Source: a virus
Taxonomy: Duplodnaviria > Heunggongvirae > Uroviricota > Caudoviricetes
Length of the DNA stretch: 64,000 nt
Virus record (IMG/VR): IMGVR_UViG_3300038492_000581
Location: 25,815 to 89,814 of that record
Strand: one strand, 5' to 3'
This document shows positions 45,487 through 45,842 of this stretch, one piece after another. A program made the position numbers and the translations under genes. The notes under the pieces were generated by a model that was not told where the DNA came from, searched no databases, and saw only the letters and a list, made by a program, of their open reading frames with translations. How positions within the stretch are numbered: the stretch's first letter is position 1; each line of letters starts with the position of its first letter.

Positions 45487-45842
45487 ATTGCTTGTCCATC
45501 CGGCCTTCGGGCCGACCTACCCACCATCCCTGGACCTACGCTCGTCAGCACCAGCTAACGAAGGCGTACCACTGACAGGGCTTCCGTCCTGTTCTTACAC
45601 AATCCTACCCCAGGCACGGGGCTCAGTCAATTATTTCTGGGAAATTTGGGGCAGGATCGTTCTAATTAGTTGCTTAGCAACGAATTGCGATTCTTACCCG
45701 TAATTGGGCGGGGATCGACCCACGTGCCTACGGCAGACGGAAAGCCGTAAAGCTTTCCTGTCATTCGGGTTATGAGTCGAGTAGTCATTGAAGGCTTAGC
45801 TCCTTTAGCTGTTCCTTACATTACGCTATCGCTTTGCGATAG
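45487..45842. ncRNA. 356-nt ORF-poor, GC-rich, hairpin-rich region. Candidate structured noncoding RNA of unknown class.
   Basis: No convincing ORF on either strand. Multiple stable hairpins (GGCC-TTCG-GGCC tetraloop, CTATCGC-TTTG-GCGATAG, GGCAGACGGAAAGCCGTAAAGC) in an otherwise tightly packed coding region. I could not match RNase P P4 or tmRNA signatures. Confidence 0.3.

Follow-up and report, generated by a model that had tools for sequence, protein, structure and literature searches.

A GC-rich, non-coding segment at the head of a phage tRNA/tmRNA island as a candidate structured-RNA locus

The stretch of DNA analyzed here (the window) comprises 64,000 nucleotides (nt) of the IMG/VR virus record IMGVR_UViG_3300038492_000581 (positions 25,815 to 89,814) and is part of a large T4-like environmental phage. 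The window encodes an Rnl1-like RNA ligase, a DNA ligase and NAMPT, and relatives of the phage have rIIA/rIIB. All genes from about 48.6 kb down to position 1 lie on the minus strand, among them a tRNA island of 27 tRNA genes (24 found by ARAGORN and 3 by Rfam only) and a transfer-messenger RNA (tmRNA) gene. At the head of this island, 214 nt upstream of its first tRNA gene, a segment of 356 nt without an open reading frame (ORF) separates the stop codon of an ORF of 119 amino acids (aa) from the ATG of a 70-aa ORF (ORF70). This segment, positions 45487-45842 of the window, is the subject of the present analysis. In the direction of transcription of the minus-strand block, the locus is made up of the following features.

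45843-46202, minus strand: upstream orphan ORF of 119 aa, with a single match (itself) among 5.8 billion proteins.
45487-45842, no strand assigned: ORF-free segment and candidate structured-RNA locus, marked by stops in all frames, 52% GC and its folding z-score.
45274-45486, minus strand: downstream orphan ORF70, possibly a helix-turn-helix protein, with no homologue among 1.84 billion representative proteins.
45201-45272, minus strand: tRNA-Pro(UGG), the first tRNA of the island in the direction of transcription, from ARAGORN and Rfam scans.

A sequence-only reading had placed the segment between tRNA-Pro and the next protein block. It is indeed a gap within the block, but it does not adjoin tRNA-Pro, since ORF70 intervenes. 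The same reading saw no plausible ORF on either strand, and our results agree that the segment is non-coding. Each of the six frames contains TAA, TAG and TGA, so that no single stop-codon reassignment opens a reading frame, and stop-codon recoding was thereby ruled out as an explanation. The only internal ORFs of any size are one of 71 aa (plus strand, TTG start) and one of 40 aa (minus strand). Both have codon scores within the range of spurious ORFs, and codon-usage scores are negative in all three minus-strand frames. Six-frame translations compared with PHROGs and Pfam at E≤1 gave no match, a test that orphan-type genes would escape. A frameshifted pseudogene, which the sequence-only reading had named as a refuting alternative, was rejected within the same limit, as no frame retains any family similarity.

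A small protein gene, consisting of the 40-aa minus-strand ORF (45666-45788) with the remainder of the segment as untranslated flanks, is very unlikely. An AAGGAG sequence lies 11 nt upstream of its AUG, and one gene caller reports it as a gene in contig L002, but the identical contig L001 carries no such call and the Shine-Dalgarno sequence is held within a hairpin loop or stem. Its codon score of +0.11, while positive, falls within the distribution of spurious ORFs (mean −0.04, standard deviation (sd) 0.17), and such a gene would account for only one third of the segment.

With a GC content of 0.522 (52.2%), the segment ranks 6th among 179 tiles of the window. No true intergenic gap elsewhere in the block is as rich in GC, not even the one that holds the tmRNA gene, and the description of a GC-rich island is thus accurate.

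The segment also folds well. Its minimum free energy (MFE) is about −126 kcal/mol, equal on both strands, and its z-scores against dinucleotide shuffles are −3.0 to −3.1 (minus strand) and −4.1 to −4.2 (plus strand). As a background, ordinary 356-nt tiles of the window have a mean z-score of about −1.2 (sd 1.4). Among the 179 tiles, the segment ranks 2nd on the plus strand and 33rd on the minus (gene) strand, and is therefore an outlier on the plus strand only. The phage's own tmRNA, treated by the same method, reaches −2.3/−2.5, so that the segment is at least as strong. The segment is as foldable as a real RNA gene of this phage; thermodynamics alone is no proof. The earlier description of the segment as highly structured hence holds for its z-scores and its plus-strand rank, but not for the minus strand when measured against the genome background. 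The predicted helices, with their base-pair probabilities (P), are listed below from the upstream to the downstream end of the minus strand.

45826-45842, both strands: 7-bp perfect palindromic hairpin, CUAUCGC-AAA-GCGAUAG on the minus strand and with a UUU loop on the plus strand (P at least 0.86 on both).
45791-45817, minus strand: nested hairpin AAGG..(AGCU-AAAGG-AGCU)..CCUU (P at least 0.89).
45739-45758, minus strand: 8-bp hairpin GGAAAGCU-UUAC-GGCUUUCC, reduced to 7 bp on the plus strand (P at least 0.82 on minus, at least 0.94 on plus).
45669-45681, no strand assigned: 5-bp hairpin GUUGC-UAA-GCAAC, from pair probabilities.
45600-45659, minus strand: 12-bp helix CGAUCCUGCCCC / GGGGUAGGAUUG with two G-U pairs, enclosing about 36 nt (P at least 0.61).
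45537-45568, minus strand: two-part hairpin UACGC..UCGUUAGC-UGGU-GCUGACGA..GCGUA of 5 + 8 bp (P at least 0.80).
45501-45514, both strands: 5-bp GC hairpin with the loop UUCG (cUUCGg) on the plus strand and CGAA on the minus strand (P 0.93 on plus, 0.65 on minus).
45517-45784, minus strand: long-range closing helix CUACUC (45784-45779) / GGGUAG (45522-45517), a thermodynamic prediction (P 0.61).

The long-range closing helix would enclose a multi-hairpin core. The 12-bp helix at 45600-45659 forms on the minus strand only and is absent from the plus-strand ensemble, and the loop of the hairpin at 45791-45817 contains the AAGGAG sequence that precedes the 40-aa ORF. The UUCG tetraloop hairpin noted earlier is present on the plus strand; on the minus strand, the same hairpin precedes the start codon of ORF70 by 14 nt. 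The hairpin at 45826-45842 begins one base past the stop codon of the 119-aa ORF and corresponds to the 7-bp stem that the sequence-only reading had described as followed by a T-rich run on the plus strand. The stem is there, but it is non-canonical as a terminator on both strands: the plus-strand T-run starts 8 nt downstream, the site therefore fails the terminator scan, and no terminator was called within the segment region. Two sigma-70-like promoter candidates flank the segment and face each other.

45915-45943, minus strand: promoter candidate TTGAAA-17-TATAGT (10/12 matches), inside the 3' end of the 119-aa ORF.
45462-45489, plus strand: promoter candidate TTGACA-16-CATATT with a TG extension (10/12 matches).

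The minus-strand candidate (45943-45915) lies 73 nt upstream of the segment, with a predicted start about 65 nt upstream of it. The plus-strand candidate has its predicted start at about 45496, 5 nt ahead of the UUCG hairpin. Promoter-like sites of such quality number 22 in the window against 17 ± 5 expected, which is chance frequency.

Which strand would be transcribed is a matter of weighing. Strand assignment by G-U counts (11 and 12 on the two strands, favoring neither), mirrored-structure energies and z-scores gave no clear winner. The 12-bp helix and two 8-bp helices use G-U pairs and are lost, shortened or broken on the plus strand, and the neighboring genes are all on the minus strand, as is the promoter candidate at 45943-45915, which resembles sites close upstream of tRNA-Leu and tRNA-Arg in the island; the hairpin located exactly at the far boundary of the segment favors the plus strand. 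On context grounds, we have a slight preference for a transcript from the minus strand.

The plus-strand alternative is a small RNA (sRNA) gene of about 350-375 nt, antisense to the block, which would start at about 45496, open with the 5' cUUCGg hairpin and end near 45826-45842 with the T-rich stretch. Such an RNA would be fully complementary to the ORF70/tRNA-Pro leader and could regulate how minus-strand transcription or translation enters the island. Its folding z-score (−4.1 to −5.5, 2nd of the 179 tiles) is better than that of the minus strand, the extra-stable cUUCGg tetraloop is correct on the plus strand alone, and a perfect −35 with an extended −10 sits exactly at the left boundary of the segment as the hairpin does at the right. 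Like promoter-plus-terminator sRNA genes, the segment thus offers a plus-strand match to a −35/extended −10, a stem-loop at its 5' end and, at its 3' end, a hairpin with T-rich sequence after it. Unlike them, its terminator is non-canonical, with no adjacent U-tract and a negative terminator scan, its promoter occurs at chance frequency, and about 350 nt is long for a regulatory sRNA. Moreover, the z-score falls to −2.75 with the proposed ends, the G-U counts give the plus strand no advantage, and all other genes over about 48 kb lie on the minus strand. We regard the plus-strand gene as rather unlikely, although it is a close rival of the reading favored below.

To place the segment among known RNA classes, it was compared with Rfam 15 (4227 models) at gathering thresholds and at E≤10, using three query sizes. 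The window scan at gathering thresholds gave no match in 45487-45842. With the 1201-nt and 411-nt queries, the sole match at E≤10 was to c-di-GMP-I (13.7 bits against a gathering threshold of 35, E=4), a noise-level match that overlaps the end of the upstream 119-aa ORF; the segment hence has no credible Rfam match, trivial or otherwise. Neither the GOLLD nor the ROOL model was listed for the segment even at E≤10. RNase P RNA was considered by eye and rejected, as the AGGAAAG motif is one strand of a local hairpin with no P4-forming complement, in agreement with Rfam.

Candidates of the tRNA type were rejected as well: ARAGORN gave background hits and no others, whether introns were allowed (tRNA with a large insert, tmRNA), thresholds were relaxed or default settings were kept, and Rfam gave no tRNA match. 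The relaxed search produced one feature within the segment.

45700-45772, minus strand: weak tRNA-like stretch with a T-arm-like hairpin GUGGG-UCGAUC-CCCGC (6-nt loop), from ARAGORN at its 75% threshold.

This stretch has three acceptor-stem mismatches, and ARAGORN is silent on it at 100-85% of threshold. As 139 hits occur window-wide at the 75% threshold, the cloverleaf appears at the background rate. In addition, a near-repeat occurs within the segment on the plus strand, at 45646-45659 (TTGGGGCAGGATCG) and 45704-45717 (TTGGGCGGGGATCG), 58 nt apart. Read on the minus strand (CGAUCC..GCCC(C)AA), each copy resembles the 3' half of a tRNA T-arm plus acceptor. The T-arm-like hairpin and the near-repeat are at most weak hints of tRNA-derived sequence.

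The idea of a ribozyme remnant, put forward in the sequence-only reading, found no support in any ribozyme or intron model. The least probable of the explanations considered is a ribozyme, self-splicing introns included, such as a group I intron without an ORF that splits one gene into the 119-aa and 70-aa ORFs. Its size would fit, two short orphan ORFs flank the segment on the same strand, and the downstream frame is open back to 45516. Against this, group I, group II and small-ribozyme models gave no match at E≤10 on the 411-nt query, the sequence has no recognizable P7/R-S type element, and both flanking ORFs are without homologues that could show exon continuity.

A site acting at the DNA level (replication origin, packaging site or protein-binding control region) is likewise highly improbable. 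The segment is non-coding, with palindromes at both ends and candidate promoters facing each other, as such a site might be. However, it lacks iterons and multi-copy repeats, it is GC-rich rather than AT-rich, and the genome changes its coding strand some 3 kb from it, near 48.6-49.8 kb. More specifically, the earlier suggestion of an origin did not hold up: replication-origin features in the segment amount to two-copy short repeats, with no AT-rich unwinding element at 52% GC and a cumulative skew that is monotonic across the region, without a GC-skew inflection.

Homologue searches characterize the whole neighborhood as orphan. The three flanking proteins matched only themselves in IMG/VR, among 5.8 billion proteins and among 1.84 billion representatives. 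ORF70, which ends 1 nt before tRNA-Pro, has an ambiguous codon score and an ordinary folding z-score of its DNA (−1.9); its AlphaFold2 (AF2) model has a predicted local distance difference test (pLDDT) score of 55, with two helices plus a β-hairpin. Further copies of the segment, by exact look-up, are limited to 100% identical contigs from SRR4039775 and SRR4039776, which come from one environment and show zero polymorphism over 5.8 kb. Exact 18-mer scans with the segment found nothing in IMG/VR and chance matches alone in JGI metagenomes and GTDB genomes, and blastn against GenBank phages and plasmids gave no match. The metallophosphoesterase near the segment does have relatives (40-76% identity), and ten of the loci found through it were searched by blastn, nhmmer and a single-sequence covariance model (CM), with nothing resembling the segment. 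In the closest relative, a sister phage represented by contigs L009-L011, the phosphoesterase is 76% identical and the 197-aa protein has a homologue at 46% identity. This phage is known only from contigs of 1-2.3 kb that end short of the equivalent position; L010 breaks off within the homologue of the 197-aa protein, some 0.6 kb before the expected place of the orthologous spacer.

Another close rival is that the segment is a functionless spacer or a decayed remnant (a degraded gene, one or more degraded tRNA genes, or the scar of a mobile element) in an orphan, quickly changing part of the island, its hairpins being incidental to GC-rich sequence. The segment and its three flanking ORFs are unique to this phage, and homing endonuclease genes, typical of high-turnover regions, lie nearby. 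The T-arm-like hairpin is one U short of canonical, with a similar copy 58 nt away and a poor cloverleaf at relaxed threshold, and the gene-strand folding z-score falls within the upper fifth of ordinary tiles. On the other hand, no frame holds leftover protein similarity, the tRNA-like match occurs at a background rate (139 per window), and unselected intergenic DNA in a phage of 43% GC would be expected to be AT-rich rather than the gap of highest GC. The plus-strand z-score, 2nd of 179, also counts against a remnant. Doubtful as it is, we consider a functionless remnant almost as likely as the reading that we favor, namely a lineage-specific structured RNA.

Comparison with related phages provides the context for this preference. 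Four phages (L012, L015, L016 and L022), related through the neighboring phosphoesterase (41-44% identity), share a layout in which rIIB is followed by a near-consensus sigma-70 promoter, then by 440-860 nt of ORF-free sequence, and then by the first tRNA; L022 has one more ORF between rIIB and the promoter. The first tRNA after the leader is tRNA-Tyr in L012, L015 and L022, and the leaders are ORF-free in all frames.

L012:15474-16335 (same as L013 and L021; IMGVR_UViG_3300028045_000007): ORF-free leader element, about 770-860 nt as in L016, with the promoter TTGAC(G/A)-16-TATAAT.
L016:18024-18815: the corresponding leader element, with the same promoter type.
L015:13986-14772: leader with 440-680 nt of ORF-free sequence (range of L015 and L022) before tRNA-Tyr, with a near-consensus promoter.
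L022:15646-16559: leader of the same kind before tRNA-Tyr, with a near-consensus promoter.

The leaders of L012 and L016 are 74-79% identical. Among the 173 pairs of their RNAalifold consensus, which includes a long-range closing helix, 27 carry compensatory double changes, compared with 1-5 in slid controls. The L012/L016 leader has no match in Rfam even at E≤10, and IMG/VR scans with its conserved 18-19-mers recovered the same contig and no other. This element appears to be a large structured RNA that is as yet undescribed and comparable to GOLLD and ROOL, and it is a stronger lead than the segment in the window. The leaders of L015 and L022 share a 35-nt block (GGGTAATGACCTATTCCC core) that is absent from L012/L016 and from the window, and the L015 leader has a canonical T-arm plus acceptor-like 3' end (GGAGGTTCAATTCCTCC-TACTGGCA) that the tRNA finders did not call.

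Structured leaders in the relatives indicate that phages of this lineage begin their tRNA arrays with large structured RNAs. The segment resembles them in relative position and strand, just before the first tRNA of the array. It differs in its gene neighborhood and from leaders of 440-860 nt with a conserved strong promoter after rIIB; the L012/L016 leader has covariation support, whereas the segment shares no detectable sequence or structure with the leaders of the relatives. Homology of the segment to the L012/L016 leader was considered and rejected: a pair-profile nhmmer search gave nothing in the region, and a CM of the conserved 193-nt core gave nothing against the segment with default filters and at most 1 bit with filters off.

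Known phage RNAs offer further points of comparison. RNAC and RNAD of phage T4 are demonstrated transcripts of about 120-140 nt. The segment is similar to them in its tRNA-cluster location and T4-like genome setting (rIIA/rIIB, Rnl1-like genes), and dissimilar in its length of 356 nt and in being a putative transcript. The two T4 RNAs come from the T4 tRNA region, where they are co-transcribed with and processed out of the tRNA gene cluster, and their roles are not known (PMC3014915). GOLLD and ROOL are phage-encoded RNAs of no known function that are frequently found close to tRNA islands (PMC12286853). Like them, the segment is non-coding, GC-rich relative to its genome, multi-helical and next to a tRNA island. 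Unlike them, it is 356 nt long as opposed to about 580 nt for ROOL and more than 800 nt for GOLLD, and it has no Rfam match, no family and no covariation-supported structure.

Taken together, we tentatively read the segment as specifying a structured RNA, or a leader, that is specific to this lineage, belongs to the tRNA/tmRNA island and is made from the minus strand. We do so because the segment is non-coding, is the intergenic gap of highest GC, folds at least as strongly as the tmRNA and forms minus-strand helices that use G-U pairs. By analogy, its position at the island head, the upstream promoter candidate, the leaders of the relatives and the precedent of GOLLD, ROOL, RNAC and RNAD may point the same way. 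The absence of coding capacity, the composition, the thermodynamic foldability, the position and orientation with respect to the island, and the leaders of the relatives are directly established.

Several observations weigh against this reading. The minus-strand z-score is only 33rd among the tiles, and the better z-score and rank together with the cUUCGg loop point to the plus strand. The sense strand is 15-50 kcal/mol more stable than its complement in the tRNA block and in the L012/L016 RNA, unlike the segment with its equal MFE on both strands. The promoter candidates occur at chance frequency, and ORF70 stands between the segment and tRNA-Pro. As the core CMs do not match the segment, its link to the leaders of the relatives is one of positional analogy, not homology. 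With only identical copies and orphan flanks at hand, the helices of the segment have no covariation support. Furthermore, the whole 1.6-kb neighborhood is orphan and may thus be recently acquired, unselected DNA. The earlier proposal of a structured sRNA accordingly survives as the best available reading, though not as a demonstrated one, with no Rfam family, no homologue and an ambiguous strand.

If the segment is indeed such an RNA, we infer its transcription, strand, processing and any function as follows. Transcription on the minus strand would either start at the sigma-70-like site (45943-45915) or reach the segment by read-through from genes upstream, and the segment would form the 5' part of a transcript that continues through ORF70 and tRNA-Pro to the remainder of the array. 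It would fold as a multi-hairpin domain, with the 12-, 8- and 8-bp helices inside the long-range closing helix. Host RNases that process tRNA precursors would then separate the segment RNA from the downstream RNAs. Once released, it may act as a stable RNA, comparable to T4 RNAC/RNAD and to GOLLD/ROOL in other phage tRNA islands, or it may instead serve as a cis-acting leader for ORF70 and the array.

Going beyond the favored reading, the segment might found a new class of phage tRNA-island RNA, an idea that we regard as speculative and on the whole unlikely. It would take the form of either a compact RNA of about 300 nt released from the head of the array transcript or a sense/antisense pair. 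In the sense/antisense version, which forms part of this same speculative proposal, the facing promoters at 45943-45915 (minus) and 45462-45489 (plus) would gate transcription into the array.

The island holds further genes that were found by Rfam.

14641-14957, minus strand: tmRNA gene, 63.3 bits against a gathering threshold of 47, not reported by ARAGORN.
28292-28369, minus strand: tRNA gene found by Rfam only, 39.8 bits.
43440-43509, minus strand: tRNA gene found by Rfam only, 35.9 bits.

The tRNA gene at 43440-43509 overlaps the 3' end of an HNH endonuclease ORF. HNH homing-endonuclease genes are scattered among the tRNA genes (44820-45191 and 43485-44018, both minus), and a homologue of the one at 44820-45191 is located directly after the L012 leader (L012:16811-17068). 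Long tRNA-like genes of 170-190 nt occur in the window at 41920-42089 (minus) and at L012:2155-2346 (minus). The former matches the Rfam tRNA model end to end, with an insertion of about 97 nt in the variable-arm region that folds into two long hairpins. It was missed by ARAGORN, and the surrounding tile has the strongest folding z-score of the window, −6.5.

The other large unexplained gap between minus-strand ORFs of the block (39275-39707, 433 nt, GC 0.41) is located just upstream of tRNA-Leu(CAA) and is spanned by a plus-strand ORF of at least 50 aa. Near-consensus sigma-70-like promoters (10-11/12 matches) occur within the island at 39281-39309, 42566-42594 and 17495-17523, all on the minus strand; 39309-39281 is directly upstream of tRNA-Leu (39280) and 42594-42566 directly upstream of tRNA-Arg (42499). 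From these, the island may be transcribed from several internal promoters.

Genes with an RNA-repair flavor surround the island, namely those for an RlaP-like nucleotidyltransferase, a metallophosphoesterase and the Rnl1-like RNA ligase (47833-48528, 47153-47836 and 5655-6719). Among the relatives, a protein of L022 (L022:5640-7163) shows faint similarity to TROVE (Ro60-like), so that Y-RNA-like partners become a possibility for this lineage. A tRNA with the CUA anticodon (amber suppressor; Pyl according to ARAGORN) is present in L012 (17506-17579) and L022 (16809-16883), and L015:18235-18855 is a release-factor-like gene (PCRF/RF-1). Together, these suggest that parts of the lineage have reassigned a stop codon; the window itself yielded no suppressor tRNA.

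Phage tRNA islands repeatedly carry large non-coding RNAs of no known function, as GOLLD, ROOL and T4 RNAC/RNAD exemplify. The segment described here is at present an orphan, and its chief value is as a pointer to a type of locus. If it is a real RNA, it would add one more example, unrelated to the others and compact. Should the proposed new class prove true, then together with the unrelated, covariation-backed leaders of 770-860 nt it would mean that T4-like environmental phages routinely front their tRNA arrays with diverse, fast-evolving structured RNAs. If the segment and the leaders of the sister phages are analogues, placing a structured RNA ahead of the tRNA array would be a design that recurs, and such recurrence would point to a role in tRNA expression, processing or protection.

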